From assembly GCA_024277355.1 (NCBI GenBank), contig JAJRVL010000002.1, forward strand, positions 30,001-62,000: a stretch of DNA of 32,000 bases, written 5' to 3'. Source of the DNA: an archaeon (GTDB lineage: Archaea > Iainarchaeota > Iainarchaeia > Iainarchaeales > 1-14-0-10-31-34). A program made the position numbers and the translations under genes. Of the stretch, positions 7,112 to 23,750 are shown piece by piece; the stretch's first letter is position 1, and the number at the start of each line of letters is the position of its first letter. The notes under the pieces are model-generated. The model did not search any database. It was not told where the DNA came from and was given only the letters and a program-made list of their open reading frames with translations.

Positions 7112-9706
7112 TTATTTTTTAAAAAAACTTGCTTTAAATCTTTTCATAAGTAATGAGTTTGTTACAACTGAAACTGAACTAAAAGCCATTGCAGTTCCTG
7201 CAATAACAGGGCTTAATAAAATTCCTGTAAAAGGAAATAAAATTCCTGCTGCAATCGGAATTCCAATTACATTATAAGCAAAAGCCCAGAAAAAATTCTG
7301 TTTTATTTTGTTCATTGCATATTTGCTTAATTCAATTGCAGTAACTACATCTCTTAAATCATTTTTAACTAAAATTACATCTCCTGTTTCAATTGCAATA
7401 TCTGTTCCTGAACCAATTGCAATTCCAATGTCTGCCTGAGCCAAAGCAGGAGCATCATTTATTCCGTCTCCTACCATTGCAACTTTAAGGTTTTCTTTTT
7501 GTAATTCTTTTACTTTTTCTGCTTTTTCTTCAGGCAGAACTTCAGCAAAAACTCTTTCAATTCCAATTTGGTCTGCTATGGCTCTTGCAGTTCTTTCATT
7601 GTCTCCTGAAATCATTATTGTGTCAAGGTTCATTTTATTAAGAATTTTTATTGCTTCAAAAGAATTTTCTTTTAATGTATCGGCTACAGCAATAATTCCT
7701 GCAGGAGTATTGTTAACTGAAATTACAACAGCAGTTTTTCCTTGTTTTTCAAGTTTTTGCAGGGAACTTTCAATAAACTCAGTTTTAATTTTATTTTCTT
7801 CCATTAATTTTCTGTTTCCAAGCAGAATATTTTTTTTATTGTAAACTGCCTGAATTCCTTTTCCGCTGATGGAATTAAAGTTTTCTGGTTCCTTTAAAAT
7901 AATTTTTTGTTCTTTTGATTTTTTGACTATTGCTTCTCCTAAAGGGTGTTCTGATTTATTTTCTATTGCTGCTGCAATTTCTAATACTTCTTTTTCTTTA
8001 AATCCATTTAAAGAAATAATATTTGTTACTTCAGGTTTTCCTTTAGTTAAAGTTCCTGTTTTATCAAAAACAATTGTGTTAAGTTCTCCTGTTTTCTGCA
8101 ATGCTTCAGCATTTTTAATTAATATTCCGTGTTCTGCGCCTAAACCTGTTCCAACCATTACTGCAGTAGGAGTAGCCAAGCCAATTGCACAAGGACATGC
8201 AATAATCATTACACTAATAAAAATAGTTAAAGCAAAAAGAAATGCCTGTCCTCCAATAAAAAACCAGAATAAAGCAGAAACAACCGCAATAATCATTACT
8301 GCAGGAACAAAAACAGAAGCAATTTTGTCTCCTAATTCTTGTATTGGAGCTTTGCTTCCTTGTGCGTCTTCAACAAATTTAATTATTTGTGCTAAAGCAG
8401 TTTCTTCTCCAATCTTTTCTGTTTTAAATTTAAAGCTTCCTGTCTTATTTATTGTTGCTCCAATTACTGTGTCATTAATGTTTTTTTCTACTGGAATACT
8501 TTCGCCTGTAACCATGCTTTCATCAATACTTGAATGACCTGAAATTACTTTGCCGTCAACAGGAATTTTCATTCCGGGTTTAACAATAACAATATCTCCA
8601 ACTAAAACTTCTTCTATTGGAATTTCAATTTCTTTTCCGTTTCTTTCAATTAAAGCAGTTTTTGCCTGCAAGCCCATTAATTTTTTTATTGCTTCAGAAG
8701 TTTTTCCTTTAGCTAATGATTCAAAATATTTTCCTAATAAAATAAATGCAATTAAGAACGCTGCAACTTCAAAATACAAATCTTTTGAACTAAACAAAGA
8801 AGAACCAGTTAAAATTGCAATAACTGCAATTAAACTGTAAACATAAGCAGAACCAACTCCAATTGCCACAAGAGAATCCATATTAGGGTTTTTGTTTAAA
8901 ATTAATGCTTTAAAACCAGAAGTAAAAAATCTTCTTCCAATCCACATCACAGGAGTAGCAAGCAAAAACTGAATTATAGCTTCATTTTGCATAATAAATT
9001 CGGGGACAGGTAATGGGAAAAAATTTGAAAACATTAAATACATTAAAGGAAGTGATAAACCAATTGCACTAAGAAATTTATTTTTATATGATTCAATTTC
9101 TTTTTGTCTTGCTTCTTTTTCTATGTCAGATGTTTCTGTTTTTTCTGCTTTATAGCCTGCGTTATCTATTGCTTTAATTAAATCACTTGTTTTTACTTTA
9201 TCTGAATCAAAAAAAACTGTTGCTTTTTGTGTTGTTAAGTTAGTCTGATAACTTTTCACTCCGTCAATTTTTTCTAAAGTGCTTTCAATTATTCCAATGC
9301 AATGCTGTGATTCCATTCCATGAACTTTTAATATAACTTTATTTTTTCCTTTTTCAGGTTCTTTTTTGATTACTCCATAACCTGCTTTTTTTATTGCTTT
9401 TTCAAATAAACCTGAATTGGCTTTATTTTTATCAAAAACAATTGTTGCTTTTTCTGTTGCATAATTAACATTAGCAGATTTAACTCCTTCAACTTTATTT
9501 AATGCTTTTTCTATTGTTAAAGCACAGGAAGCACAATGCATATCTTTAATCAAAATGCTTTGTTTTGAATCAGAAATTAAAGGGTGTTTGTGTTCTTTAG
9601 TTTTTTCTTCCCCTAAAAACTTTTCATAACAATTCTTTGAACAAAAAAAGTATTCTTTTCCGTTCTTAACTGTCTTAAATTTAGCTTTTTCTTTTTCTAT
9701 TTCCAT
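7112..9706 (-). CDS. copA: Copper-translocating P1B-type ATPase (YHS-like N-terminus + 2 HMA domains)
   Basis: 864 aa with TGES, the CPC motif ([11 protein letters not shown]), DKTGT, SEHPLG and [13 protein letters not shown]1 has MHCASC. HMA2 is degenerate (GMESQHC, a single Cys). The N-terminus [15 protein letters not shown] is the C-terminal half of a YHS/TRASH motif. The first half (DPSCG) lies upstream of the ATG (see findings), so the true start is uncertain. Confidence 0.95.
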
Positions 9707-10527: not shown

Positions 10528-10562
10528 TTTTTCCCTCCTTTTTACTAATCCTATTAGGTAAC

Positions 10563-10579
10563 ATATCATAATATGATAT
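10563..10579. promoter_or_regulatory. 17-bp perfect palindrome ATATCATA-A-TATGATAT in a divergent promoter region
   Basis: It lies between the small membrane protein gene (-) and the PadR::TRASH regulator gene (+), just upstream of a TTTTTAAAT TATA-like box (10585-10593). It is a candidate operator. Confidence 0.35.
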
Positions 10580-10614
10580 ATCAGTTTTTAAATCTTTTGC
10601 TTTAGCCTTTAATT

Positions 10615-12078: not shown

Positions 12079-12089
12079 TTTTTCACCAC

Positions 12090-12539
12090 TTATTTTTTAA
12101 ATGCTCCTAAATAGTTTAATGTAAAAAAGAGCAGTCCAATGCTAAACAAATTTATTGCCCATCCGTATTCTGCCAGAAAACTGATTGCACCAATTGGCAG
12201 AAATAATGCGCCTAAAGAAGCGCAAGCAGGGCATTGTGCTACTAAAAATAATCCTGCAGTTCCTGCTCCGCTTCCTCCAGCTCCGCTGATTTTCCTGTTA
12301 ATACTGCATGTTTTTGGCTGAAGCCAGTTAAAAACCTGAAATGAAAAAGTGATTCCAAATAAAACAGCAAAAACAACAAACAAAATAGCGTTATAGAAAG
12401 GTATGCTTGCAAACCATATTTCAATATTTTCAATTATTCCAAGAACTTGAGTATAAATATAAATAACTGTAATAATTATTGTTGAAATAACAGCCAATGA
12501 AAAATATTTTGGTTTTTTCAGAACATCAATTAATTTCAT
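12090..12539 (-). CDS. 4-TM membrane protein with intramembrane CPAC pair (paralog B)
   Basis: 149 aa. It has a Gly-rich loop SGAGGSGAGTAG followed by LFLVAQCPACASLGALFL. It lies directly downstream of the DsbA-like gene 12604..13386. Confidence 0.65.
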   Translation of the reverse strand: MKLIDVLKKPKYFSLAVISTIIITVIYIYTQVLGIIENIEIWFASIPFYNAILFVVFAVLFGITFSFQVFNWLQPKTCSINRKISGAGGSGAGTAGLFLVAQCPACASLGALFLPIGAISFLAEYGWAINLFSIGLLFFTLNYLGAFKK

Positions 12540-12573
12540 TTTTATTGCCTTTTATTTTTTTTTTAGAGGGGTC

Positions 12574-12600
12574 AAAGGGCGCAATAAAATTACGCCCTTT
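12574..12600 (-). terminator. GC-rich stem-loop AAAGGGCG-N11-CGCCCTTT
   Basis: 8-bp perfect stem located 4 nt downstream of the stop of the DsbA-like gene (minus strand). It occupies the only sizeable gap (64 nt) in this gene run. Confidence 0.45.
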
Positions 12601-12603
12601 AAT

Positions 12604-13386
12604 TTAACTCAGCAGTAAATCAATTGCTGACTTAAATGTTTCAAATGGCTGGGCTCCAACTATAAGCCGGCCTGTTCCATCTTTTTTTCCAATGAAAAAA
12701 CTTGGAGTCCCGCTTACTCCTATGTTGCTTCCTTCATTGAAATTTGCCTGAACAATTTTAGAGTATTTTTTTGAATCAAGGCAGGAATCAAATTCGCTTG
12801 AATTTAATCCTAAATTTTTTGCCCATGACTTAATGTCTTTTACTGTAAGATTAGAAACTGTTCCTTGTCCAAATTTAGCTTGTTCTTCAAATATTTTGTT
12901 GTGCATTTCCCAGTATTTTTCCTGTTCGCCTGAACATCTTGCAGCTTCAGCATAAGGCTGAGCCATTGAATGAAAACTCAAAGGAAAATCTTTATAGACA
13001 AAAAATACTTTTCCTGTTTCAACATAGTCTTTATCCAGCTGGGATTTTGTATTATTAAACCAGCTCCTGCAGAAAGGACACTGATAATCAGAAAACTCAA
13101 CTATTATTACTGGTGCGTTTGGGTTTCCAAGTGTTGCAGCAGCATTTTCAAGAAGTTCGTTCATCTGAATGCTTCCTTTAGAGTCAACAGAAGGAATAGG
13201 AGAAGGATTTGGCGCAAGTATTTCTTTTGAATCTTTTGGTATTACTTGTGTTTTTTTAAATTCTGACAGTAATGTTATTTTTCCGCTGATTTCCTCTCCT
13301 GAAATAAATATTGCTGCTGAAACAATTAATGCTGAGACAAGCACAACTATTGAAAATATATTTATTAAATTTTTTTCTTTATTCAA
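12604..13386 (-). CDS. Membrane-anchored DsbA-like thiol:disulfide oxidoreductase (CPFC active site)
   Basis: 260 aa with an N-terminal TM segment, FSDYQCPFCRSW and GVSGTPSFFIGKKDG. Second DsbA-like gene in the window. Confidence 0.8.
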   Translation of the reverse strand: MNKEKNLINIFSIVVLVSALIVSAAIFISGEEISGKITLLSEFKKTQVIPKDSKEILAPNPSPIPSVDSKGSIQMNELLENAAATLGNPNAPVIIVEFSDYQCPFCRSWFNNTKSQLDKDYVETGKVFFVYKDFPLSFHSMAQPYAEAARCSGEQEKYWEMHNKIFEEQAKFGQGTVSNLTVKDIKSWAKNLGLNSSEFDSCLDSKKYSKIVQANFNEGSNIGVSGTPSFFIGKKDGTGRLIVGAQPFETFKSAIDLLLS

Positions 13387-13399
13387 TTAAATTCCTCCT

Positions 13400-13804
13400 T
13401 TAATTAACAATTATTTCTCCGGTCATATTTCCGTGTTTTTCTCCGCAATAGACAGAACAAAAAAATGAATAATTTCCTTTTTTGTCTGCAGTAAATTCTA
13501 TTAAAGTTGTTTGTCCTGGTTCAAGGTTTTTGTTGATTCCAAAAGTATTAATGGAAATTCCATGCAAAACATCAACACTAGTTATGTATAATTTGACTTT
13601 GTCTCCTTGGTTTATTGTTATTGTTGAGGGATTAAATTCCCATTGTTTTGCAGTAATTCTGAATTCTTTTGTCTGTATTTCTTTGGTTTTTACAGAAACA
13701 TCTGCATTGTTTTTTGTTGTGTTTTCTGCAGAATCAATACAGCCGGATAAAAAAACTAATATTGCGATTAAGAAAAAACCGCTGATTAATTTATTTGTTT
13801 TCAT
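13400..13804 (-). CDS. Cupredoxin-fold lipoprotein-like protein with a CuA-type ligand motif
   Basis: 134 aa. The signal peptide ends in LSGC. The cupredoxin region (WEFNPSTITINQGDKVKLYITSVDVLHG) ends in FCSVYCGEKHGNM, which fits the C-x3-C-x3-H-x2-M pattern of cytochrome oxidase subunit II / N2O reductase CuA sites. Confidence 0.8.
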   Translation of the reverse strand: MKTNKLISGFFLIAILVFLSGCIDSAENTTKNNADVSVKTKEIQTKEFRITAKQWEFNPSTITINQGDKVKLYITSVDVLHGISINTFGINKNLEPGQTTLIEFTADKKGNYSFFCSVYCGEKHGNMTGEIIVN

Positions 13805-13810
13805 TTTTTT

Positions 13811-14089
13811 TCACCTTTTGCAGCTTATTTTGCATTCAAAATTTTGTTCTGAAAAATAAGGGTTGTTTGTAAGTGAAGAAAATTTTATTGTGGTTCCTTT
13901 TTCTGAGAAAAGTTTTTCTTTGTCTGCAGAAGCAGTAAAATTTTCTGAAGACAAAGAATCAGAAAGTCTTATCTCAATTTCAGTTTCGTTGAAATTATTG
14001 TAAGAAGGAGGTGTAACTGCAACAAGTCCAATAATAAACAGAATTATTATTGCTCCTGTTCCTGTATAAAGATAGTTTTCATCACTCAT
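13811..14089 (-). CDS. Hypothetical N-terminally anchored small protein
   Basis: 92 aa with one TM segment (GAIIILFIIGLVAV) and a C-terminal CKISC. It is the first gene of the minus-strand run. No family recognised. Confidence 0.45.
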   Translation of the reverse strand: MSDENYLYTGTGAIIILFIIGLVAVTPPSYNNFNETEIEIRLSDSLSSENFTASADKEKLFSEKGTTIKFSSLTNNPYFSEQNFECKISCKR

Positions 14090-14156
14090 AATAAAACCTT
14101 AATGTAACCTTATTGTAATAAAGTATTTAAACCTATTCTTTTGCCTATAATATTAG

Positions 14157-14477
14157 GTGGTTTTGTTGGCTTTGGAATTATTATGGAGTATTCTTTCCTC
14201 AATTTTTTTTATTGCGGCTGTTTTTTTTTCTTATAAACTTTCAAAGGAAACTAAAGGAGAAAAATACTGGATTTTTTTTATGGTGTCTGCTGTTAGTTTT
14301 GGCTTAAGCCATTTAGCAGCTAAAGGTTTTTTGTTTGGTATTCCTTTAGAGAGTTTATTTGTAGTTCGCGAGTTAGGGGAAATTGTTGGGGCTTTTTCTT
14401 TAGCTTATGCAACTTTTGGTTTGTATTCTTCAATGAAAAAAATCAGAAATAAAATGTCTGAAGAATTAAAGGAATAA
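14157..14477 (+). CDS. Hypothetical 3-TM membrane protein
   Basis: 106 aa with a GTG start and three hydrophobic segments. It is separated by 3 nt from the following wHTH gene. Confidence 0.45.
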   Translation: MVLLALELLWSILSSIFFIAAVFFSYKLSKETKGEKYWIFFMVSAVSFGLSHLAAKGFLFGIPLESLFVVRELGEIVGAFSLAYATFGLYSSMKKIRNKMSEELKE

Positions 14478-14480
14478 AAA

Positions 14481-14759
14481 ATGGACAAGTCTATTTTGTT
14501 TTACTGGAGCAAAGGCGCAGATACAAGAGTAAAATTAATAAATGAACTTTCCAGATGTAATAAAAACAATAAAGCATGCTATTTGAATTTATTGGCTGAA
14601 AAATTAAAGCTTTCTCATGTAGCAGTAAAAAAGCATTTGGATTTGCTGGTTGAACAAAATTATATAAAAGAAATTAATCCTGAAGGAAAACCTGTTTATT
14701 TAGAATTAACTGAAAAAGGATTAAATGTTTTAAAGGAATTTAAGAAAAAAAATAAGTAA
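14481..14759 (+). CDS. Small winged-helix DNA-binding protein (ArsR/TrmB-like)
   Basis: 92 aa. LNLLAEKLKLSHVAVKKHLDLLVEQNYIKE looks like an HTH recognition helix plus wing. The assignment is weak. Confidence 0.55.
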   Translation: MDKSILFYWSKGADTRVKLINELSRCNKNNKACYLNLLAEKLKLSHVAVKKHLDLLVEQNYIKEINPEGKPVYLELTEKGLNVLKEFKKKNK

Positions 14760-14765
14760 TTTTAA

Positions 14766-15437
14766 TTAAATCAGAACTCTTGTTATTATTACAAAACCTA
14801 AAATAACACTAATAAGTCCGCTTGTAATTTTTATTGAATTATGGAATTTATCTGCAGCAGTTAATTGAGATGGAAATGCAATTAATGCACTTACAAAAAA
14901 CATGCCTATCACTGAACCTAATCCAAAAAGCAGTATATAAATAATGCCAATTAATACTGAATTTACTGTTGATAAAACTAAGACTGTTATTGAAGCACTT
15001 CCTGCTAATCAATGCACTATTCCAACAAAAAAAGATTTATGAGAATGGTTGTGTGAATAAGAATCCTTGTGGGAATGAAAATGAATATGTGTTGTTTTTT
15101 TATGTCTGTGTAAATGCAGGTGAATTTTATTTTTAATTACTTTTATTAGTAAATCAAACCCAAGTAATACTAAAATAATTCCTGCAGAAAATTCCATTGC
15201 TGACGCAATAGTTTCAGGAATAATTGTTTTAGAAATCAAAACAAAAAAGCCAATTAAAAGTAAAATAAAACTATGTCCTAACCCCCATGCAATTCCAGAA
15301 AAAGATGCTTGTTTCATGCTTTTTGTCTGGCTGGCAATAGTTGAAACAGCAGCAATATGGTCTGGTTCAAATGCATGCATTAAACCAAGCATTAATCCAA
15401 AACCAGCCATTGCCAGAAACTGAGGTAATTCAATCAT
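14766..15437 (-). pseudogene. NicO/NiCoT-superfamily (UreH-like) metal transporter with a His-rich loop, interrupted by one in-frame TGA (15009-15011)
   Basis: The first part has the GLMHAFEPDHIAAV motif and the loop HLHLHRHKKTTHIHFHSHKDSYSHNHSH. After ..FFVGIVH-TGA the same frame stays open for 80 more codons (LAGSASITVLVL..GLGSVIGMFFVSAL..) down to TAA at 14766-14768. The downstream part has no start codon or SD of its own. Confidence 0.7.
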
Positions 15438-15463
15438 TGCAAATCATTGAATAACTTTGATGA

Positions 15464-15856
15464 TTATTTCTGAACCAAATCAAAAGCTTTTTTTCCGCCT
15501 TCAAGATTTATTACATTTTTGTATCCTAATTCATTTAATTTTTTTGATGCGGTTATGCTCATGTTTCCGCTTCTGCAGTAAACAATTATTTGAGTTTCTT
15601 TGTTTTCAGGAAGTTTGGTGATATTTTCTTCTATTTTATCAAATGCAATAAATTCATCTGTTCCTTTAATGTGTTCCTGTTCCGGAATGTGGACGTCAAG
15701 TAAAAAGAAATCTTTGGTTTCAAGTTTTTGTTTTAGTTCTTGTGCAGAAATATTAGTAAAACTAATGTTTTCTTTTTTTTGGATTTCTGTTTCAGAGTTA
15801 ATGCATCCATTTACAAAAAGCAGTAAAACTAATATTCCTCCAATAATTATTTTCAT
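15464..15856 (-). CDS. Secreted/lipoprotein-like single-domain rhodanese
   Basis: 130 aa. The signal peptide ends in VNGC. The active-site loop is IIVYCRSGNMS, followed by NVINLEGG. Confidence 0.85.
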   Translation of the reverse strand: MKIIIGGILVLLLFVNGCINSETEIQKKENISFTNISAQELKQKLETKDFFLLDVHIPEQEHIKGTDEFIAFDKIEENITKLPENKETQIIVYCRSGNMSITASKKLNELGYKNVINLEGGKKAFDLVQK

Positions 15857-15881
15857 ATTATTCCTCCTTTTTTATTAAAAT

Positions 15882-16202
15882 TTATTTCATAAGTTCTTCT
15901 AATGTTTTTCCTGTTGCCTGTTTTAATAATTCTGGGTTAACTTGTTTTAAGCATTTTTCATATCTGGCCGGATGATGGCTTAAATGCTGGATATTTGATT
16001 CACTTTCTAAGTCTCCGCATTCTGAATTAATTTCTTCTGCCTGTTGTGTAAAAATTTCTTCATTTTTTTGTGTTTTCAAAACATTTCCTTTTTCATCAAC
16101 ATCAAGTTTTTGTTCTGAGTTTACAAAAGGAATTAATGCAACTCCAATAAGTATTATTCCAAAGAATAATGCACCGTATATTATTGTTTCATTTTTTTTC
16201 AT
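15882..16202 (-). CDS. Hypothetical N-terminally anchored protein (CG..HLSHHP..C motif)
   Basis: 106 aa with one TM segment and an extracytoplasmic part SECGDLESESNIQHLSHHPARYEKCLK. SD is GGAGGAG. Confidence 0.5.
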   Translation of the reverse strand: MKKNETIIYGALFFGIILIGVALIPFVNSEQKLDVDEKGNVLKTQKNEEIFTQQAEEINSECGDLESESNIQHLSHHPARYEKCLKQVNPELLKQATGKTLEELMK

Positions 16203-16213
16203 TTTAACTCCTC

Positions 16214-16780
16214 CTAAATAATTTTAATAAATGAATAAATAATTGACAAAACAATTACTGCCAGCCCTATAACAAAAAACACTTTAAATAATTTATCTAA
16301 ATTAAATGAAATTATTTTTCTTAATGCCAAGTTACTTTCTTTTTTAACTAAATTATGTTTTTTTATTACTGAAAGCATATAAATTGCGCCAAGTGCATTA
16401 GAAAAAACTGCTATAAGCATTAAAGAAGTCTGATACTGGCTTATTAAAACAGCAAAAACAGACAATCCTAATACTGCAAGTAAATCAGTTAAATGGTGTG
16501 CACAGCAGGCAGCCATTGAAACGCCTGAAACTCCTGCTGAACCCGCAACACTGACTTTTGCAGGAGAATTATTAAGAAAATTTTTTATGTAAAAATATAG
16601 TCCTGTTTGAACACCAAAACCAACTGAAATAAATAAAATAAAATACCAGATTCTCTGGAATTCATTTAATGCATGTTCAACTGAATTTGCAATAATTAAA
16701 ACTGCAAAATAAAATCCAATCATTCCAAAAAACGCAAGCAACCCAAAAAAATAATGGCTTTTTTTATTTATTAAATTCAT
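16214..16780 (-). CDS. Multi-TM membrane protein with intramembrane CCAHH motif (paralog C)
   Basis: 188 aa. AGSAGVSGVSMAACCAHHLTDLLAVLG sits in the same relative position as the CPVC/CPAC helices of paralogs A and B. Confidence 0.6.
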   Translation of the reverse strand: MNLINKKSHYFFGLLAFFGMIGFYFAVLIIANSVEHALNEFQRIWYFILFISVGFGVQTGLYFYIKNFLNNSPAKVSVAGSAGVSGVSMAACCAHHLTDLLAVLGLSVFAVLISQYQTSLMLIAVFSNALGAIYMLSVIKKHNLVKKESNLALRKIISFNLDKLFKVFFVIGLAVIVLSIIYSFIKII

Positions 16781-16801
16781 TTTTTATCAGCTTTTATTTT
16801 T

Positions 16802-16948
16802 TCAGCAAAACTCGCATTTATTGTCTTTTGAAAGCAGTTCATTTGCTTTTTTTTCATAGTTTTCAGAACATTTTCCTGAACAAAAATTTTCATATTTATT
16901 TAAAGCATTAAATTTTTTCCTGCAGTAAAAACATTTTTTTTCAGTCAT
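16802..16948 (-). CDS. 48-aa TRASH/YHS-like mini-protein (not in the ORF track)
   Basis: The minus strand encodes MTEKKCFYCRKKFNALNKYENFCSGKCSENYEKKANELLSKDNKCEFC with a TGA stop, preceded by GGAGGGAATAAA-ATG. The pattern CxxC..(13 aa)..FCSxxC plus a C-terminal CxxC resembles small archaeal TRASH metallochaperones. It fills the gap between two operon genes. Confidence 0.6.
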   Translation of the reverse strand: MTEKKCFYCRKKFNALNKYENFCSGKCSENYEKKANELLSKDNKCEFC

Positions 16949-16959
16949 TTTATTCCCTC

Positions 16960-18174
16960 CTAAAAAGCAAACAAAAACAGTATTCCTGCAAGTATCAGCA
17001 ATACAATTCCCATTAATAATTTCATGTTTCTTTTGTTTTGTTTTTCCCAGTTAGTGATTTTTTCTGTCATTTTTTTGTTGCCTGCAACTAATAAAATTAT
17101 TATTAACGGAACAACAAACATTATATTGTAAATTGTAAGGAAAACCATTCCTTGCATAAATGTTGTTTGAATTGCAAGCAATGAAAGTATTCCTACATAA
17201 ACTCCTCCGCTGCATGGAAAAGTGCATAATCCAACCAAAAAGCCAAGTATTGCAACAGAAACAAGAGTTAAGTTTGTCATTCTCTTTTTTATCATTGGAG
17301 AAGCAAAAGAAGGCATTTTTAAGCTAAACCATTTGCCGTAAAAAAAGTAATCTTTAAAGTTAATTAAAGCCAAAAACAGCATTAAAAACACACTGATTTT
17401 TCCAAATAAATGCGGAATTCCTGTAATTAATATTGCCTGAAGTAAACCTAATCCAATCAAAAAATAAGCAACAAAAATTGCTGCAATAAATACTCCTCCA
17501 ACTTTCCAGACTTCTGTTTTTGTGCGGTTAATCGAATAAAGAAATGCAATGAAAAATAATAATACTCCGAAAGCACAGGGATTAATTCCATCTAATAATC
17601 CTGTAATTAAAACCAAAGGTAAAAGCTGAATGAAATCCAAATTATTATTTTTTAATTCTTTTGGGGTTGTCAGTGAATTCTTGTTTTTATTAAACCAGTT
17701 TAAATAAACTGAAATTGGTTTATTAATTTTGTATTCTTTTATTTCTCCTTTAAATGCCCAGACTTTATAGTTTTTTGCGTTTTCCATTTCGTCTTGAAAC
17801 ACAACAATTTTTTCAATGCTTTTATCAATTAAAATATCTTTGATTATTTGTTCAGGGACATGCCCTTCAAGAATTATTTTGTTGTCAATAAAAATAGTAA
17901 AATGACCTTGTAATTGAGATGGAATACTTAATTTTTTGCTTAATTCATTTAATTCAATTCTATTTTCTTTTTCACTTATAAAATCTTTTTTTTCAACTTT
18001 AATGCTGTATGATTCAAGCAATGGTTCAATGTTGTCTTCTATATACATTGTACAGCCGTGGCATGCTTTATTATAGTAAATTACTGCGTTTTTGTATTCT
18101 GTTGCAAAAGAAAACGCAGGAACTAACAGTAAAAATAATAATAATACAATAATTTTTTTTGTCATTTTTTTCAT
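16960..18174 (-). CDS. Fusion of a secreted CopG/DUF411-like domain with a CcdA/DsbD-type transmembrane thiol-disulfide transfer domain
   Basis: 404 aa. After the signal peptide comes VIYYNKACHGCTMYIED..IPSQLQGHFTIFIDNKIILEGHVPEQIIKDIL; the EGHVP block and an early Cys motif are as I recall for DUF411. The 6-TM half has GINPCAFGVLLFF and LCTFPCSGGVYVG, one Cys in each half as in CcdA. Confidence 0.75.
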   Translation of the reverse strand: MKKMTKKIIVLLLFLLLVPAFSFATEYKNAVIYYNKACHGCTMYIEDNIEPLLESYSIKVEKKDFISEKENRIELNELSKKLSIPSQLQGHFTIFIDNKIILEGHVPEQIIKDILIDKSIEKIVVFQDEMENAKNYKVWAFKGEIKEYKINKPISVYLNWFNKNKNSLTTPKELKNNNLDFIQLLPLVLITGLLDGINPCAFGVLLFFIAFLYSINRTKTEVWKVGGVFIAAIFVAYFLIGLGLLQAILITGIPHLFGKISVFLMLFLALINFKDYFFYGKWFSLKMPSFASPMIKKRMTNLTLVSVAILGFLVGLCTFPCSGGVYVGILSLLAIQTTFMQGMVFLTIYNIMFVVPLIIILLVAGNKKMTEKITNWEKQNKRNMKLLMGIVLLILAGILFLFAF

Positions 18175-18590
18175 CTCACAATATTTGCTTTTAATTCTAT
18201 TTCTATTTCAGGTTTTTCAATATCATTGCTTTTTACATAAACAATTCTTTCTATTTTTCCTTCAATACCTTTTTCCATTAAATTCGGGTCAATTGTTACA
18301 AGAAGTTTTGCTGTTTCTCCTGAATTAATTAATTTTTTGTCAATTGTTCCTTTTGTGCATCCGCAGGAAGTGCTTATTCCTGTTATTTCAAGAATTCCTG
18401 TTCCCTTATTTTTAACAAAAAAAACATATTCTATTTTTTCGTAAGGAACATTTCCAAAATCATAAAATTCAGGGGTAATTTCTATTTTTGGTTTATTGTT
18501 TTCTAAACTTTGATTTTCAGGAATTGAAATACACCCTGAAAAAATAATCAATGTTATAATCCCTATTCCTAAAAGAAATTTTTTTTTCAT
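18171..18590 (-). CDS. DUF1573-like lipoprotein (SCGCT motif)
   Basis: 139 aa. The signal peptide ends in FSGC. YDFGNVPYEKIEYVFFVKNKGTGILEITGISTSCGCTKG matches the DUF1573 pattern. A 4-nt ATGA overlap links it to the next gene. Confidence 0.75.
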   Translation of the reverse strand: MKKKFLLGIGIITLIIFSGCISIPENQSLENNKPKIEITPEFYDFGNVPYEKIEYVFFVKNKGTGILEITGISTSCGCTKGTIDKKLINSGETAKLLVTIDPNLMEKGIEGKIERIVYVKSNDIEKPEIEIELKANIVR

Positions 18591-18593
18591 TTT

Positions 18594-19187
18594 TTATGCC
18601 ACCTGGTTGACATTTATTTTTACTTTTTTTTCTGAATTTAAGGGATCGTCTGAATAAATTGAAACTATCCTTGTTACTGGCCCTCTTAAATCAGGGTGTG
18701 CAGTAGGATCATAAAAAATCTTTAATTGTGCTTCTTCTCCTGGTTCTAATATTTGTTTATAGCCGGGATTATTATGCATGCCAAATACAGGGCTTTGAAT
18801 TCCATTTATTATTATAACAGCGGTAGTGCACATACAAGAAGACTTTAATCCGTTTAATACTAGTTTTCCTTTTCCTTTATTTATTATTTCCATTGAAGTG
18901 CTTACTGTTCCTTTTCTAATGCTGACTGTTCCAAAATCATGAACTTCAGAACTAATTGTTATTAAGCCTGAACCTCTTGGATCAGGAGAATTATCAATTA
19001 TTCCCTGAATTAAAAACAAAGCAATTAATCCTAAAACTAAAACACCTATTCCAATTTTAATTATTTTTTTTCCTGTTTTTCTTCTGCTTAAATTTTTTTC
19101 TTCTTTATCTGTTTTTTCCTGTCTTAATTTTTTTTTAAGTTCTTTTTTTTCTCTTTTGCTTAATCCTTCAAAATCAGGTCTATTCAT
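18594..19187 (-). CDS. DUF1573-like protein, CMCT variant with a Met/His insertion
   Basis: 197 aa with a Lys-rich head, a TM segment and HDFGTVSIRKGTVSTSMEIINKGKGKLVLNGLKSSCMCTTAVIIINGIQSPVFGMHNNPGY. It is a paralog of 19188..20003. Confidence 0.65.
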   Translation of the reverse strand: MNRPDFEGLSKREKKELKKKLRQEKTDKEEKNLSRRKTGKKIIKIGIGVLVLGLIALFLIQGIIDNSPDPRGSGLITISSEVHDFGTVSIRKGTVSTSMEIINKGKGKLVLNGLKSSCMCTTAVIIINGIQSPVFGMHNNPGYKQILEPGEEAQLKIFYDPTAHPDLRGPVTRIVSIYSDDPLNSEKKVKINVNQVA

Positions 19188-20003
19188 TTATTCCACCTGA
19201 TCAATGTCAATTCTTACTTTTTTTTCAAAATCAACTGAGTCATTTGAAAAAACACTAATAACTCTGACTAAATGTTGTCCTTCAAGTCCTGAATGAACTG
19301 TTGGATCGTAATAAATTTTTAATTGAGCCTGTTGTTTTGGAGGAATAGTTACTGACCATCCTTTTGGATTGCCGTGCATGCTCATTCCAAATATTGGACC
19401 TTCTACTCCATTAAAAATTATTGAAGCAGTAGTGCACATACAGGAAGAATCCATATTATTTATTACTAAATCGCTTTCTCCGTCATTTCTTATTGTCATA
19501 ATTTTGCTTACTGTTCCTTTTCTAACGCTTACTTCTCCAAAATCATATGAATCCGGAGTAATAATTATTTTAGGCCTGTTTTCAGGGGCTCTTTCGGCCA
19601 ATTCAAGTCTTATTTCTTCTTCTAATTTTTTTCCTTCATCTGAAAGAGATTCCATTCCGTATTTTTTTACCATTTTAATTATTGCATCTGTTTTAGAAAT
19701 TTCTGTTTTCTCTAAAGAATCAATATACTCTAGTCTTTCTTTGGCTGAACCGCAGCAAATATTTTCTTTATCTAAAGGCCTGTTGCAGCATGAACAAATA
19801 AATAATCCATAAACTTCGTCTGCTTTAAATGGTTCTGCTAAAATTATTTTTCCTGTAACAGGCGGCATAGTTTTCTCAGAATTTAATGCAACTGGAGTCT
19901 GGGTTATAAATGAATTTGCTAAAAAAATTAAAGAAATAACAATTAAAGCCATTGCTGTAAAATACAATTGATTTTTTTTACTTTTTATTTTTTCTTTATC
20001 CAT
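19188..20003 (-). CDS. Cys-cluster N-domain + DUF1573-like CMCT-variant domain
   Basis: 271 aa with a TM anchor, FICSCCNRPLDKENICCGSAKE, then YDFGEVSVRKGTVSKIMTIRNDGESDLVINNMDSSCMCTTASIIFNGVEGPIFGMSMHGNP. Confidence 0.65.
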   Translation of the reverse strand: MDKEKIKSKKNQLYFTAMALIVISLIFLANSFITQTPVALNSEKTMPPVTGKIILAEPFKADEVYGLFICSCCNRPLDKENICCGSAKERLEYIDSLEKTEISKTDAIIKMVKKYGMESLSDEGKKLEEEIRLELAERAPENRPKIIITPDSYDFGEVSVRKGTVSKIMTIRNDGESDLVINNMDSSCMCTTASIIFNGVEGPIFGMSMHGNPKGWSVTIPPKQQAQLKIYYDPTVHSGLEGQHLVRVISVFSNDSVDFEKKVRIDIDQVE

Positions 20004-20028
20004 TTTTTCACTTTCTTAAAAAGAGGGG

Positions 20029-20050
20029 GAGAAAGCCTTACGGCCTTCTC
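20029..20050 (-). terminator. GC-rich stem-loop GAGAAAGCC-ttac-GGCCTTCTC (one mismatch)
   Basis: 8 of 9 stem positions pair. It lies between the Met/His-rich protein gene and the DUF1573 operon start, so it is a candidate terminator or processing site. Confidence 0.35.
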
Positions 20051-20088
20051 TTGGTTTTAACGCATTATTTAATGCATTAACATTTTTT

Positions 20089-20439
20089 TTAGATGTATTT
20101 TCCTGACATCATAGGGCAGTGTTCTGTCATTTCCTCAAAGTTTCCTGATTCCATTGCCTTTTGCATTTCTTTAAAATCTTCTGAATCCATTGTTTCATGC
20201 ATTTCGTTTATTTCTTCTTTCCAGTTTTCCCCAAGCATTTGTTCGTGAAATTCCTCAAAGTTTCCTTTGTGCATTGTTTTATGCATTTTCTTCATGCCGA
20301 AAAAAGTTTCTTCTGGATTTTCAGTGTTTGAGTTATTTTCAGTATAATTTCCTTCTGAATGTGCTGTAACAGAAACAGAAATAATTCCAAGCAATGCAAC
20401 TACAAAAAGAGAAATTACTGCTGTTTTAAACAAATCCAT
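20089..20439 (-). CDS. Secreted Met/His/Glu-rich repeat protein (putative Cu-binding)
   Basis: 116 aa. After the signal peptide comes FFGMKKMHKTMHKGNFEEFHEQM..EMHETMDSEDFKEMQKAMESGNFEEMTEHCPMM. The GNFEE/DFKEM units repeat. SD is AGGAGATGG. Confidence 0.65.
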   Translation of the reverse strand: MDLFKTAVISLFVVALLGIISVSVTAHSEGNYTENNSNTENPEETFFGMKKMHKTMHKGNFEEFHEQMLGENWKEEINEMHETMDSEDFKEMQKAMESGNFEEMTEHCPMMSGKYI

Positions 20440-20458
20440 TTAACCATCTCCTAAAAGC

Positions 20459-20475
20459 TTTACATTTAATGTAAA
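20459..20475. promoter_or_regulatory. Operator-like palindrome TTTACATT-T-AATGTAAA (box 1)
   Basis: A perfect 17-bp palindrome sits between a TATA-like ATTTAAAAA (20484-20492, minus strand) and the SD of the Met/His-rich protein gene. With flanks, GCTTTACATTTAATGTAAATC is 18/21 identical to box 2. Confidence 0.5.
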
Positions 20476-20496
20476 TCAATCTGTTTTTAAATCTTT

Positions 20497-21213
20497 CTAG
20501 AGTTTTTCTCTTGCCTTGTCTAAAATTAGTGTTTCTTTTCCCATTTTTTTATCTAATTTTCTTTCTTCTAAAATGTCTAATTCTTCAAAATGAATTGGAA
20601 GAAGGCCAAAAGTTCCTGCCTTGACCGAAGAAAAAAATCTTTTAATATTGAAAAAAGAGCCTTTTAAATGCATTAATTCGTGCTTTATTACTGTTCTTAA
20701 TTCATTGTCTTCAAGCAGTTCAATTAATCCTGTTGAAATAAAAATTACTTTTTTGTATCCTGAAACGACAAAAGCATTTGGTTCTGAATTCACAAAAACA
20801 ATTATTTCGGGTTTTGTTATTGAAAGGTTTGCTGCTTCTTCTAAAGCAATTTTTTCTACTTTTTTGTCTTTTGTTTTTGTTATTCCTATTTTCATAAGCA
20901 AAGGAGAAAAAACATATGAGACAATAAAAAATAAGCCTGCAGCAATTAATGCTGTCTGGTGTGCTAAATGAAAAATTGTTGAATAATGTGAATTAGCAAA
21001 AGCAAGAATTAAAAGAAAAGTTATTATTGAAGTTGAAAGAATTGCTTTTGTAAAAAGACTTTGTTTTATTGAAAGTTTTTTTCTAAGTAAAATAAGAATT
21101 AAAATTGAAACAAGGATAAGGGTTATTAAAAAATAGTTAAAAGATGCGAGAAAAGGACTTTGCCCCGCAATACATTCGGTAGCGCATTGTAGTGTTGAAA
21201 CTCCTTCGCCCAT
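20497..21213 (-). CDS. BlaR1/MecR1-like (M56/M48-type) membrane zinc metalloprotease lacking a C-terminal sensor domain
   Basis: 238 aa with three TM segments, then EPNAFVVSGYKKVIFISTGLIELLEDNELRTVIKHELMHL (HExxH). The N-terminal extracytoplasmic end carries CATEC. It is directly downstream of the BlaI-like gene (10-nt gap). Confidence 0.7.
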   Translation of the reverse strand: MGEGVSTLQCATECIAGQSPFLASFNYFLITLILVSILILILLRKKLSIKQSLFTKAILSTSIITFLLILAFANSHYSTIFHLAHQTALIAAGLFFIVSYVFSPLLMKIGITKTKDKKVEKIALEEAANLSITKPEIIVFVNSEPNAFVVSGYKKVIFISTGLIELLEDNELRTVIKHELMHLKGSFFNIKRFFSSVKAGTFGLLPIHFEELDILEERKLDKKMGKETLILDKAREKL

Positions 21214-21223
21214 TTAAAACCTC

Positions 21224-21586
21224 TTATTTAAGTTGTTTTCTCAAATAAGCTACAGAAGAACTTCCAAAAGTATTTTTCAGAAAAGAAAGGAATTTGTCAG
21301 AAATTTCCTCGCTTAATTCTTCTCTGCTGTATTTAGGAGAATAAATGTAAATTAAGCCGCCTTTTCCTTTGAGTATTTTTCTTGTAAGTATTCCTTTTGA
21401 GTGCATTCTGTCTGTTGTAACTGTTATAGTAGTATAAGCAACGTCATTCTTTTTTTTCACTAAATCAAATATTTCTCTGCAGGTGGCTTTTTCTTTTTTC
21501 CATAATGAATCCATTATGTCTGATTCAAGTTTTCCAACTAAAGAATTTAGTCCTTTTTTTTCAAAGTCAATTTTATTTAAATCCAT
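21224..21586 (-). CDS. BlaI/MecI/CopY-family winged-helix repressor
   Basis: 120 aa. LGKLESDIMDSLWKKEKATCREIFDLV..VAYTTITVTTDRMHSKGILTRK..YIYSPK follows the penicillinase-repressor pattern. It has no C-terminal CxCxxxxCxC copper hook. Confidence 0.8.
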   Translation of the reverse strand: MDLNKIDFEKKGLNSLVGKLESDIMDSLWKKEKATCREIFDLVKKKNDVAYTTITVTTDRMHSKGILTRKILKGKGGLIYIYSPKYSREELSEEISDKFLSFLKNTFGSSSVAYLRKQLK

Positions 21587-21633
21587 TGTTTCACTTATTT
21601 ATCTTTTGCAAAATATGTTTATAAATGTATTGC

Positions 21634-21650
21634 TTTACATCTTTTGTAAA
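21634..21650. promoter_or_regulatory. Operator-like inverted repeat TTTACA-N5-TGTAAA (box 2)
   Basis: It lies in the divergent region between the blaI-like gene and 21675..22328, directly after the palindromic TATA box TTTATAAA (21618-21625) and before the SD GGAGGT (21661). An additional ATGTA-N6-TACAT repeat overlaps it at 21625-21640. Confidence 0.5.
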
Positions 21651-21674
21651 TCTTTTACTTGGAGGTATGATTAA

Positions 21675-22328
21675 ATGAATAATACAAAGTTTTTTCTTGT
21701 ATTGCTTGTTGCTTTAACAGCATTAACTCAGATTTATAATCTTTCACTTGAAAATTCAATTTCTTCTGATTTAATAAGTAATGTTGTTTTATCTTCTAAT
21801 GCGGATTCAGCTAACACAGTGACAGCAAATTTATCTAACAGCAATACACAGGAAAAAAAAACGCTTTCTCTTTCTGATATAATTCCTTCCGGGGTTCCTG
21901 AAATTTATGGAACAGAATTAGGAATAAGCTATGATGAACCTGTTGCAGGTTTAGCTGTATTAAAAAAACTTGATACTGCAATTTCTCTTGAAGGAAACTT
22001 ACAGGAAAGATATATTAAAGTAGGAACAAGCATTTCATGCGAATTTTGCTGCGGAGCAAAATCAATTACTTTTTCTGATGGAAGAGCAGCTTGTGGTTGT
22101 GCTCATTCTTATGCAATGAGAGGTTTAGCAAAATATTTGCTTCAAAATCACGCAGACAAATTTACTGATCAGGAAATTTTAAATGAATTAGTTAAATGGA
22201 AAACTTTGTTTTTTCCAAAACAAATGACTAAAAGAGCATTAGAATTAGCTGCACAAGAAGGAACTTATAATCAGGAACTTTTGAATAAAGTTAATTCAAG
22301 TGTTCCAGACATGGTAGGAGGTTGTTAA
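21675..22328 (+). CDS. Secreted Cys-cluster protein ending in PDMVGGC
   Basis: 217 aa with an N-terminal signal/anchor, SCEFCCGAKSITFSDGRAACGCAHSYAMRGL and the C-terminus SSVPDMVGGC followed by the stop. Confidence 0.65.
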   Translation: MNNTKFFLVLLVALTALTQIYNLSLENSISSDLISNVVLSSNADSANTVTANLSNSNTQEKKTLSLSDIIPSGVPEIYGTELGISYDEPVAGLAVLKKLDTAISLEGNLQERYIKVGTSISCEFCCGAKSITFSDGRAACGCAHSYAMRGLAKYLLQNHADKFTDQEILNELVKWKTLFFPKQMTKRALELAAQEGTYNQELLNKVNSSVPDMVGGC

Positions 22329-22329
22329 A

Positions 22330-22575
22330 ATGGATTTAAATAAAATTAGTTTTGATTCACTGCTTTTAGTTTTTGTAGCAGTATTGTTTATTGTTTCTGC
22401 AGTTTCAGCAGTGCAATTAAATGAATTACAGGGAAAAATTGTTTCTTTCAAAGAAACAAGCAGTTCAGTAGTTTCTCTGAGTTCTGATTCATCTTCTAAT
22501 ATTTCTTCATCTTCAAGTGACGAAGAAATTTTAGCAAAACTGAATCAAGCTCCAGATATGGTTGGAGGCTGTTAA
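22330..22575 (+). CDS. Small anchored Ser-rich protein ending in PDMVGGC
   Basis: 81 aa with a TM segment (LLLVFVAVLFIVSAVSAV), a Ser-rich linker and the C-terminus NQAPDMVGGC followed by the stop. It starts 1 nt after the previous stop. Confidence 0.6.
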   Translation: MDLNKISFDSLLLVFVAVLFIVSAVSAVQLNELQGKIVSFKETSSSVVSLSSDSSSNISSSSSDEEILAKLNQAPDMVGGC

Positions 22576-22604
22576 AGCCTCTTTTTATTTCTTTTTATAA
22601 TTAA

Positions 22605-23750
22605 TTGAATAAGAGTTTTTTTATGTCTTCAAAAAAAATGTTTCTTCCAAAAAAACCAATGATTTTAGCGGTTATTGCTCTTTTAGCTTTAATTATTTTT
22701 TCTGCTTTTTTTAGTATTCAGTCAATGAATAATGAATTAACTGAAAAAGAAAACAATTCTTTGGAAGAAAATTCTTTAAAAGACAATAATGAAATTAATA
22801 ATGCACTTCCTTTTGTTAAAATACTTTTAGTTAAAAATAACTGTGAAGACTGCTTTGATATTGATTTAATGGCGCAGCAAATTTATTCTTTTGATATCAA
22901 TGTTTTGTAAGTAAAAACAATTAATGCTGATTCAGAAGAAGGAATAAATTTAATTAAAATGCATGATTTGAATACTTTGCCCGCAATTATTATTAATGGT
23001 GAATTCAAAGGAACTGACTTAGAAACCCAATGGAAAACAATTGGTGAAGAAAAAAACGGAGTATTAATTGCAAGCAGGCCTCCTTATTATTCTTTAGAAG
23101 AAAAAAGAGTTAAAGGAAAAGTTGATTTATTATTAATAAAAAATTCTTCTTGTAAAGACTGCATTGACCTGAATTTTTTTGCTGACGACTTAAGAGAATT
23201 AGGCATTATAATTGAAAATGAAAGAACAATTGAATTTGATTCAGAAGAAGGACAATCTCAGATTGAATTTTATTTTATTGACAGAGTTCCTGTGGTTCTT
23301 TTAACCAGTGAAATTGGAGAGTATTCTTTTTTGAAACCTTTATGGAGCCAGATAGGAATAATTGCTCCTGATGGAAGTTATATTTACACTGAAGCTGTTC
23401 CTTTTTTTGATTTATTTTCAGAAGAAACTAAAGGGTTAGTTGAAGTAACAAGATTAATTGATGCAAATTGTTCTGATTGTGTTGATGTAAATGCAATTGT
23501 TTCTCCTTTAACTAAAATGGGCTTAAAAATAATCAAAGAAGAAACCTTTGATGTTTCATCTGAAAAAGGAAAAGAATTAATTGAAAAATATTCTATTACT
23601 AAAATTCCCACAATAATTGTTTCAGAGGAAGCTGAAGAATACACTGAATTTTTTGTTGTCTGGCCTAAAGTAGGAACAAAAGAAGAAGATGGATTTTTTG
23701 TTTTCAGAAATCTTGAAGTTTTAGGAAGCAATTTTATTACTTTAAAGTAA
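22605..23750 (+). pseudogene. Membrane-anchored protein with three thioredoxin-like CxDC repeats, interrupted by one in-frame TAA (22908-22910)
   Basis: Track ORFs 22605..22910 and 22959..23750 are in the same frame, separated only by a TAA. The repeats (~105 aa each) carry NCEDC, SCKDC and NCSDC plus a cis-Pro-like (L/V/I)P(A/V/T)(I/V) element. The stop falls inside repeat 1 (INVL*VKTINADSEEG, compare IIIENERTIEFDSEEG and LKIIKEETFDVSSEKG). The likely real start is the ATG at 22623. Confidence 0.65.

Follow-up and report, generated by a model that had tools for sequence, protein, structure and literature searches.

Two adjacent genes of a DPANN archaeon, here called A and B, encode membrane-anchored proteins which end in the same seven residues, Pro-Asp-Met-Val-Gly-Gly-Cys (PDMVGGC). 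They lie within a stretch of 32,000 nucleotides (assembly GCA_024277355.1, contig JAJRVL010000002.1, positions 30,001 to 62,000 of the forward strand), which as a whole is referred to below as the window. The question raised by this locus is what keeps the two tails alike, and what they may be used for. The motif and the gene pair proved to be real, strongly conserved, previously undescribed and specific to DPANN archaea, and the most likely reading of the tail is a flexible cysteine arm of a hitherto undescribed sort.

Two proteins with one tail

The identical ends (...NSSVPDMVGGC in A, ...NQAPDMVGGC in B) had been noticed by a previous inspection of the DNA letters, the sequence-only reading; sequence and list of open reading frames (ORFs) bear out the ends and their positions, as well as the three codon differences (gac/gat, gta/gtt and ggt/ggc), all of them synonymous. 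No further ORF with the same tail was found in the 32 kb window. The statement that the rest of the two proteins is unrelated holds for most of their length, the exception being the N-terminal transmembrane (TM) helix with a juxtamembrane N/Q motif, which can be aligned at profile level (hhalign of the two anchors: probability 87%, E 4e-6, 41 columns). B looks, by sequence, like A minus its ectodomain, that is, an arm-only relative of A, a likeness overlooked previously.

The window has a G+C content of 28.7% and archaeal-type neighbouring genes, and its host is a DPANN archaeon. The nearest relatives of A are DPANN proteins as well, one encoded by a Candidatus Diapherotrites genome being 73% identical.

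Conservation and pairing of the tails

Homologues of A were searched for among 5.8 billion clustered proteins and, exhaustively, by hidden Markov model (HMM) among 1.84 billion representatives. B used as a lone query gave 2 matches, because its linker is of low complexity, and an alignment of the B proteins found at the loci was used instead. Metagenomic DNA (241 million records) was scanned for PDMVGGC followed by a stop codon. Gene neighbourhoods were compared, with flanks of 8 kb on either side, at the 80 best of 538 A-encoding genome loci, which become 81 with the window. The 80 loci come from Iainarchaeota/Diapherotrites, Micrarchaeota, Woesearchaeota, Pacearchaeota, Aenigmatarchaeota and Nanoarchaeota, and from five bins labelled Methanosarcinales.

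MVGGC ends were found in 105 of the 120 best matches of A, the remainder being mostly conservative variants or truncated, and in 114 of the 118 B-family matches inspected, so that the database check suggested by the sequence-only reading came out in its favour. Representatives of A end in MVGGC (74) or QVGGC (27), more rarely in MVG[A/S/D/E]C or WVG[D/E]C; the consensus is [M/Q/W]-[V]-G-[G>S,A,D,E]-C-COOH. In an alignment of 44 A sequences from DPANN phyla, G215 and C217 are invariant and M213, V214 and G216 are at least 90% conserved; in B, G79, G80 and C81 are invariant and M77 and V78 at least 90% conserved. Residues beyond the Cys are present in only 6 of about 300 A sequences.

In 76 of the 81 loci, as counted automatically, one to three small tailed ORFs come after A within about 0.5 kb; A itself is tailed in 71 of these and tail-less in 5. 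The commonest gap between A and B is 2 nt. Two loci (L012 and L019) were scored as lacking B through ORF-calling artefacts, a tailed ORF following A directly in each. The ORFs with any variant of the tail in 99 metagenome stretches comprised 70 A, 77 B and 18 cut by the contig end, besides five others: a C-terminal fragment of A, three B-like proteins with long N-termini and one chance match. No third class of protein with the tail was found in these stretches or in the flanks of the 80 loci. The tail is dispensable on A, not on B.

The V-G-G-C codons are identical in 6 of 77 A/B pairs, and all four Val and Gly codons are used. Codon identity between A and B amounts to 43%, where pooled codon usage predicts about 33%, an excess which is what shared genomic codon bias would give. 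Since identical pairs are few and the identity is near expectation, gene conversion and recent duplication are excluded, the latter being what the sequence-only reading had named as fatal to its own claim. The amino acids are kept while the codons vary, and the tail is conserved across DPANN phyla: selection acts on the peptide, not on the DNA, as had been proposed, and the embedded GGAGG fails by the same data as an explanation of the shared tail. An origin at the DNA level alone, Shine-Dalgarno sequence included, was accordingly rejected.

The tails of A and B vary together, a feature previously overlooked. Position -5 within a genome is M/M at 70 loci, Q/Q at 9 and mixed at 2; Pro at -7, as opposed to a Gly/Ser-rich run, is present in both proteins at 37 loci, in neither at 35 and in one only at 9. 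Among 293 A tails of the combined set, 247 are of the M-type and 40 of the Q-type (about 14%). The 10 Q-type A proteins of the loci fall into 10 separate clusters at 35% distance, and for 8 of them the nearest neighbour is of the M-type; the Q-type A of L060, for example, is 78% identical to the M-type A of L015, and L060 is switched in all three genes. This scatter among M-type neighbours points to at least seven independent switches from M to Q, in both genes each time. Such covariation would be expected if both tails are read by one common partner.

The two protein families

About 1,620 homologues of A were found, falling into 334 clusters at 50% identity in the HMM search; none contains a Pfam domain and all are named "hypothetical" at most. 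As judged by these searches, the family appears compact and without distant annotated relatives. For A itself, no Pfam/NCBIfam family was found at E <= 0.1, a profile search against PDB sequences gave zero matches at E <= 10, and Foldseek comparison of its model with PDB gave nothing at E <= 0.001.

AlphaFold2 predicts for A (mean predicted local distance difference test, pLDDT, 89.6) an anchoring helix (residues 3-38) and, beyond a low-confidence linker (about 39-65), a domain made up entirely of helices (66-209). The pLDDT of the tail block (211-217) is 87, which suggests that the arm of A itself is folded back onto the A ectodomain. An irregular segment between helices holds the invariant residues C122, E123, C125, C126, C140, C142, H144 and S145, a Cys5-His core, followed by the conserved M148, R149, H159, K176, F180 and P181. 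Tail-less A variants retain all five domain Cys. The CGCxHS motif recalls the PCYCGC family (PF13798), a candidate which was dropped after hmmscan gave no match at E <= 0.1; the literature found on that family was limited to a lipoproteome note.

The B family contains at least 671 short proteins (50-120 aa), identified by a profile of the locus B proteins; Pfam/NCBIfam scans of B returned only noise. All 85 locus B proteins have an N-terminal, TM-like hydrophobic helix, followed by a near-invariant juxtamembrane Q-x-x-Q, a linker rich in S, A, G and Q, and the tail, so that a disordered tether of 30-70 residues separates helix and terminus. Mean K+R content is 3.5 on the N-terminal side of the helix and 1.4 in the 15 residues after it; the tails are therefore expected outside the cell. 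Both models show the N-terminal anchor helix, and the sequence-only reading had likewise placed the two tails outside the cytoplasm. AlphaFold2, run with database B proteins, gives a helix at 8-43, while the pLDDT of the linker stays below 50 and that of the tail reaches about 54; the heptapeptide is thus placed with confidence by the predictor only where the A domain is present (87 versus about 54).

The terminal Cys is the sole Cys in 69 of the 85 locus B proteins. Another 12 have two extra Cys in a charged N-terminal extension, presumably cytoplasmic, typically as CC (e.g. MDCCENTEQK; L061, 7006-7215), and an N-terminal CC is present in 25 of 118 database matches. Cytoplasmic N-terminal extensions are known in A homologues as well, where they are often His-rich (HETHEHHEHHEH; e.g. 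P0044 and P0054). The two kinds of extension hint at metal contact on the cytoplasmic side too. The linker of B often contains a Met/His motif, GGETYEQMMARMHPDQ or WTEDEKMxYExHGxxPAR (short forms YExMMxRMHPDQ / WTxxEKMxYExHG), found in 26 of 85 locus copies and 85 of 118 database matches.

The operon

The A/B pair heads an unannotated, DPANN-wide operon of roughly eight genes, which had escaped the sequence-only reading. The usual order is regulator, A, B (one to three copies), CcdA, a membrane protein with an HCPLC motif, its partner, a CCxHH membrane protein, sometimes with a soluble HH-R domain, and a small C...HxxHHP...C protein. For most of these core members Pfam and NCBIfam contain no family. 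A CcdA-like gene lies within 8 kb of A in 51 of the 80 loci, usually directly after B, and is the most constant annotated neighbour. Co-occurrence with BlaI/BlaR1-like genes, which the sequence-only reading had suggested examining, was found upstream of A in about 20 of the 80 loci, window included; the protein with three thioredoxin (Trx) repeats, also named there, is present in only 18.

In 55 of the 80 loci the regulator is a one-component membrane protein, in which an external C-x4-C-P-H loop connects two TM helices and a winged helix follows in the cytoplasm (DUF7343; e.g. L049, 1641-2144). This type is not found in the window, and replaces BlaI/BlaR1. Recurrent neighbours among the 80 loci are DsbA-like proteins (25), the three-repeat Trx protein (18), AhpC/redoxin-like (10), cysteine desulfurase-like (10) and rhodanese (8) proteins, and P1B ATPases within 8 kb of A (19-26). 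Other frequent additions are Met-rich proteins, PadR-TRASH and ArsR regulators and DUF302.

The small C...HxxHHP...C protein (cluster 5) and many B proteins have a MHP-x-Q-type motif in common. In the form (M/H)-x-x-M-(G)-H-(H)-P-(D/G/E)-Q it recurs in B, in cluster 5 and in the Met-rich proteins of cluster 14, and its recurrence in three otherwise different small operon proteins makes it a candidate for a metal-binding module which they share. In rare cases the A domain is fused to a CPxCP membrane domain (P0257) or to the HH-R domain of the operon (P0225), and such fusions appear to link A functionally to those members. As a clue to chemistry the fusion partners (FKBP, CPxCP membrane domain, HH-R) were discarded, since they show operon linkage only.

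A proposed surface cysteine arm for a soft metal

The reading that we favour, with a probability of about 0.45, is that the tail is a cysteinyl arm at the cell surface, kept functional by CcdA, which passes a soft metal, probably Cu(I), to the Cys5-His site of A. The tethered thiol of B, aided by the Met/His motif, would catch a thiophilic ion near the surface, most likely Cu(I). B would then dock in a groove of A which also takes A's own tail, and ligand exchange would move the metal to or from the cysteine cluster, the five domain Cys and the arm Cys making six thiolates. From there the metal would go to the membrane proteins of the operon with Cys/His motifs. The external thiols would be held reduced by CcdA, thioredoxin-like and DsbA-like proteins. 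The operon would be switched by regulators sensing extracytoplasmic conditions, here the BlaI/CopY-type repressor and the BlaR1-like protease acting on TACA-N5-TGTA, and in most other DPANN genomes the membrane winged-helix protein with its external CxxxxCPH loop. In this scheme we infer metal binding, docking of the tail in trans and direction of transfer.

Tail-less A proteins, which occur with a tailed B in five loci and keep the five domain Cys, fit a sixth Cys supplied in trans. Of the three guesses of the sequence-only reading, a Cu(I) ligand has the most contextual support; it is favoured because of the Met/His motifs of B and, nearby, the P1B-1 ATPase CopA, HMA and TRASH domains, a cupredoxin and the CopY/BlaI-type repressor. 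Its processing or attachment signal is the least supported of the three.

A more specific idea, tentative and distinctly less probable, is that of a two-part carrier of a hitherto unrecognised kind. The terminal Gly-Gly-Cys of B would plug in trans into a pocket of the new-fold protein A, in competition with A's own tail in cis, and complete a polynuclear Cu(I)-thiolate (or catalytic) site as its sixth thiolate, the whole working as a relay with a detachable ligand. In a bolder variant, considerably less likely again, an N-to-S acyl shift would activate Gly-Cys-COOH, the Gly-Gly end being then attached to another molecule.

Several observations weigh against a metal-passing arm. Homologues of known function were found for neither A nor B, and the invariant Glu, Ser, Arg, Lys and His of A would suit an enzyme site equally well. 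Gln, which replaces Met in about 14% of A tails, is a poor Cu(I) ligand, and Met may serve recognition, not ligation. A P1B ATPase lies within 8 kb in only about a quarter to a third of the loci, and tail docking is suggested by pLDDT alone. A lone thiol has low affinity, and extracellular Cys-based copper handling is unusual except under anoxic conditions. Finally, no residue of the A domain co-varies convincingly with M/Q: the best site, 185 (V in 21 of 40 Q-type versus 20 of 247 M-type sequences), is confounded by phylogeny, and 130 is also weak.

Alternative explanations

The alternative which survives best, rather unlikely as it is, is a pure thiol-disulfide relay. A would be an extracytoplasmic oxidoreductase (CxxCC, CGC), and the terminal Cys of A and B would shuttle mixed disulfides between CcdA, DsbA-like or membrane partners and substrates. 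Tails of this use are known from Erv2, with a C-terminal Cys-Gly-Cys, and from mammalian thioredoxin reductase, with Gly-Cys-Sec-Gly. The frequency of CcdA and the recurrence of DsbA-like, three-repeat Trx and AhpC/redoxin-like proteins speak for the relay, as do the many CxC/CxxC proteins of the island surrounding the operon (three DUF1573 and three DsbA) and the fusion of A to a CPxCP domain. B, however, has a single extracellular Cys and is therefore unable to resolve a mixed disulfide alone. The relay also leaves unexplained the Met/His motifs, the cytoplasmic CC or His-rich extensions and the copper-type neighbours, and Foldseek showed no likeness of A to the Erv, Ero1, DsbB, VKOR or thioredoxin folds of PDB. 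Capture by the three-repeat Trx protein, another guess of the sequence-only reading, is possible, but CcdA is the steadier partner (51 versus 18 of 80 loci), and the Trx gene of the window has an in-frame stop.

It is improbable that V-G-G-C is a post-translational handle, recognised for lipidation (as a C-terminal lipobox), for cleaving off the Cys or for linking the Gly-Gly end to another molecule through a thioester. By residue class, positions -4 to -1 ([M][V][G][G/S/A]-C) do resemble the PROSITE pattern of the bacterial lipobox, the Cys is almost always final, and 5 of the 80 loci have an Lgt homologue close to the operon. Yet there is no hydrophobic stretch ahead of the motif, charged or polar residues being directly upstream (the D of PDMVGGC), and D or E stand at -1 in the variants MVGDC, MVGEC and WVGDC. 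Both proteins are already TM-anchored, Lgt is already accounted for by N-terminal lipoboxes of the island, the conserved operon members include no candidate for a processing enzyme, and the high pLDDT of the A tail suggests that it is packed on A.

A structural role, with the terminal Cys forming an A-B or B-B disulfide which holds a membrane complex, has a slim chance. The tails always co-occur and match, the conserved N/Q residues shared by the two anchors could pair in the membrane, and the arm cysteines of SoxY do cross-link by disulfides (PMC5336275). A lone disulfide, on the other side, has no need of five conserved residues or of M/Q covariation; tail-less A occurs with tailed B, and the adjoining CcdA reductase argues for reduced thiols.

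Slimmer still is the chance of a SoxY-like sulfane-sulfur carrier, the terminal Cys bearing a persulfide or thiosulfonate between extracellular enzymes. DPANN archaea are not known to be sulfur oxidisers. A rhodanese is encoded in the window as well as in 8 of 80 loci, a cysteine desulfurase-like protein in 10, and SoxY offers a precedent for intermediates carried on the Cys of a swinging arm (PMC5336275). These neighbours are nevertheless infrequent, the Met/His motifs point to metal, and Pfam/NCBIfam scans of A, B and neighbours gave no SoxY, SoxZ, SoxAX or SoxB signal.

That the tail is a by-product without peptide function, arising from Shine-Dalgarno GGAGG, terminator stem, gene conversion, recent duplication or chance, can practically be dismissed: GGAGG is well placed to serve B and commoner in A than in B tails, and the B tail codons form a hairpin arm, but the codons vary freely under conserved amino acids, the B tail has no downstream gene to serve here, and the motif is kept in over 2,000 proteins from six DPANN phyla.

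Features of the window

The features of the window are collected in Table 1.

Table 1. Genes and sequence signals around the A/B pair; positions are those of the 32 kb window.
Feature	Position	Strand	Details
Gene A, membrane-anchored, Cys-rich helical ectodomain, ends PDMVGGC	21675..22328	+	ORF, 217 aa
A tail P-D-M-V-G-G-C	22305..22325	+	codons CCA GAC ATG GTA GGA GGT TGT; TAA at 22326-22328
Invariant Cys5-His core of A, C122-E-x-C125-C126...C140-G-C142-x-H144-S145	22038..22109	+	44-sequence alignment
Gene B, arm-only (TM helix, disordered Ser-rich linker, short helix, PDMVGGC)	22330..22575	+	ORF, 81 aa
B tail P-D-M-V-G-G-C	22552..22572	+	codons CCA GAT ATG GTT GGA GGC TGT; TAA at 22573-22575
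GGAGG in the Gly-Gly codons of A, 8 nt 5' of the B ATG; likely ribosome-binding site of B	22317..22321	+	
Terminator-like hairpin GGAGGCT/AGCCTCT with T-run	22564..22592	+	5' arm formed by the last B codons (GGA-GGC-TGT)
Inverted repeat TTTACA-N5-TGTAAA, operator-like, divergent BlaI-A promoter region	21634..21650		
BlaI/CopY-family winged-helix repressor, divergent from A	21224..21586	-	PF03965 E 5e-15; weak TIGR02698 CopY/TcrY E 9e-8
BlaR1/HtpX-like membrane zinc metalloprotease (HEXXH), without large sensor domain	20497..21213	-	PF01435 E 8.5e-11, PF05569 E 1.8e-3
Anchored protein with three thioredoxin-like CxxC repeats	22605..23750	+	in-frame TAA at 22908-22910
CcdA/DsbD-type transmembrane thiol-disulfide transporter, N-terminal CxxC domain	16960..18174	-	PF02683 E 7.7e-6, 25.8 bits vs 27.1-bit cut-off
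CCxHH membrane protein (cluster 3)	16214..16780	-	in 50/80 loci
Small anchored C...H-x-x-HHP...C protein (cluster 5)	15882..16202	-	in 37/80 loci
P1B-1 (Cu+/Ag+-type) ATPase CopA, YHS and two HMA	7112..9706	-	Pfam; CPC 504, YN 811, MAFSS 840

GGAGG is contained in 46 of 75 A tails (61%) and in 32 of 85 B tails (38%). A scan for hairpins gave one site, against 0.6 expected in shuffles. The tail codons thus likely serve twice, as ribosome-binding site in A and as hairpin arm in B.

TACA/TGTA half-sites are typical of BlaI/MecI/CopY operators. TACA-N5-TGTA was found in 10 of 13 BlaI-A intergenic regions of different DPANN genomes (the window and loci L001, L013, L017, L044, L048, L051, L053, L058 and L069), and is probably, from its sequence and position, the operator, with a spacing wider than that of the classical TACAnnTGTA cop box.

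The genes for A, B and the three-repeat Trx protein are divergent from a long array on the minus strand, whose order is BlaI, BlaR1-like protease, a His/Met-rich protein, three DUF1573 proteins, CcdA, CCxHH protein, HHP protein, rhodanese and NicO-like protein; cupredoxin, DsbA/MerT-like pairs, PadR-TRASH, DUF302 and CopA are found further upstream. The residues CPC, YN and MxxSS of CopA are signatures of the Cu+/Ag+ type. Positions 6381-23750 (about 17 kb) can be regarded as one island of genes for extracytoplasmic Cys/His/Met-motif proteins, which include three DsbA-like proteins, two MerT-like CPxC membrane proteins, a cupredoxin, a rhodanese, a NicO-like half-transporter, three DUF1573 proteins with CxC motifs, PadR-TRASH, DUF302, DUF5676 and CopA. 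One membrane protein has a weak MerT-like match (E 4e-5, far under the family cut-off), and the small membrane proteins of the island are mostly without family assignment.

The frame of the three-repeat Trx gene continues homologous past its stop (...FDINVL*VKTINADSEEGINLIK...); intact homologues have a median length of 358 aa, and the stop could mark a pseudogene, an assembly error or read-through. On the minus strand, 20089-20439 encodes an anchored protein of 116 aa, rich in His, Met and Glu (MHKTMHKGNFEEFHEQM...EHCPMMSGKYI) and without family match, which by composition is likely a metal binder; a homologue was found in one other locus only. The DUF1573 protein at 19188-20003 (minus strand) has an extra N-terminal Cys-rich segment, CSCCNRPLDKENICCGSAKE, loosely echoing the CxxCC...G motif of A. 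Classical N-terminal lipoboxes are present on island proteins, e.g. in the ORF at 18171-18590 (IIFSGC), and a bacterial-type Lgt (PF01790, E 2e-65) adjoins the operon in L030, L031, L041, L050 and L062.

Significance

DPANN archaea are a large, mostly uncultured group with tiny genomes, in which most conserved surface proteins have no assigned function. Two unannotated families are defined here, A (about 1,600 proteins, with a new fold, no match being found in PDB) and B (at least 670 small proteins), together with a diagnostic C-terminal motif, a conserved operon and its regulators. Motif and A/B pairing can be converted into family models, by which hypothetical proteins could be annotated in their thousands. 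Should the arm prove to carry metal or thiol equivalents, it would reveal copper/redox management at the surface, which is the interface with host cells, and a surface chemistry dependent on cysteines which need a dedicated reductase; an arm without a body would add an architecture to the few known swinging-arm carriers. The hypothesis is approachable with peptides and a soluble domain of 150 residues.

Comparison with known systems

A literature search gave nothing relevant on MVGGC, or on DPANN archaea with CcdA or a C-terminal cysteine. In sorting signals such as PGF-CTERM/archaeosortase, LPXTG/sortase and GlyGly-CTERM/rhombosortase, the motif is followed by a TM helix and then by a basic tail. 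The PDMVGGC tail resembles them as a short conserved C-terminal motif on otherwise different surface proteins, but is confined to two protein families, and no hydrophobic helix or basic tail follows it in the window or the listed pairs: the stop, which may be TAA, TGA or TAG, comes directly after the Cys, in agreement with the sequence-only reading, which had recognised no known sorting signal. Nor is it the lipobox of Lgt substrates, where an N-terminal hydrophobic region precedes the Cys and the mature protein follows; here the motif is C-terminal, with polar or charged residues upstream (PD-, GSG-).

No PF00403 (HMA/CopZ metallochaperone) match was found in A or B, HMA domains being present only in the nearby P1B ATPase. 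The Gly-Gly ends of ubiquitin-like and sulfur-carrier proteins (ThiS, MoaD, SAMP, CysO-Cys) belong to cytoplasmic proteins with a beta-grasp fold, which was not found: A is helical and B disordered, and both are TM-anchored.

The Mer system passes a soft metal by ligand exchange along Cys motifs located on either side of the membrane, with a flexible C-terminal Cys tail in MerA. The concept of a Cys relay is similar, and one membrane protein of the island is weakly MerT-like; however, no MerA or MerP was found, and Mer uses Cys pairs where the arm has a single Cys. In the Scs system the DsbD-family ScsB is coupled with the Cu+-binding thiol proteins ScsC and ScsD, linking copper and redox stress (PMC10907172). 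The likeness is a functional analogy only, and lies in a CcdA/DsbD-type reductase encoded with thiol-protein partners, as found here in 51 of the 80 loci. Scs proteins are thioredoxin folds with CxxC, whereas A and B are archaeal, have no Trx fold and no homology to them, and carry a single terminal Cys.

HypE and DsrC have a functional C-terminal Cys on a mobile tail, which carries a covalently bound group between active sites. They differ from A and B in being cytoplasmic, in their unrelated folds and motifs (PRIC in HypE, CxxxxxxxxxxC-V in DsrC) and in having no arm-only partner. SoxY ends in Gly-Gly-Cys-Gly-Gly and is a soluble beta-sandwich paired with SoxZ. Its pathway intermediates are carried on the Cys of a swinging arm, and arm cysteines can cross-link (PMC5336275). 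Common to SoxY and the present tails is a Cys beside Gly-Gly, borne by a mobile extracytoplasmic C-terminal peptide which visits, or here would visit, the active sites of partners. The Cys is final here, the proteins are TM-anchored, and one partner is without a domain. SoxY models of Pfam/NCBIfam gave no match for A and noise for B, A being all-helical and B a TM helix with disorder; a C-terminal GGCGG with SoxZ, SoxAX or SoxB partners was not found, and no Sox family occurred among 30 neighbours scanned. The tail thus belongs to no known family or signal, and by analogy appears closest, in its way of working, to the swinging-arm carriers SoxY, HypE and DsrC.

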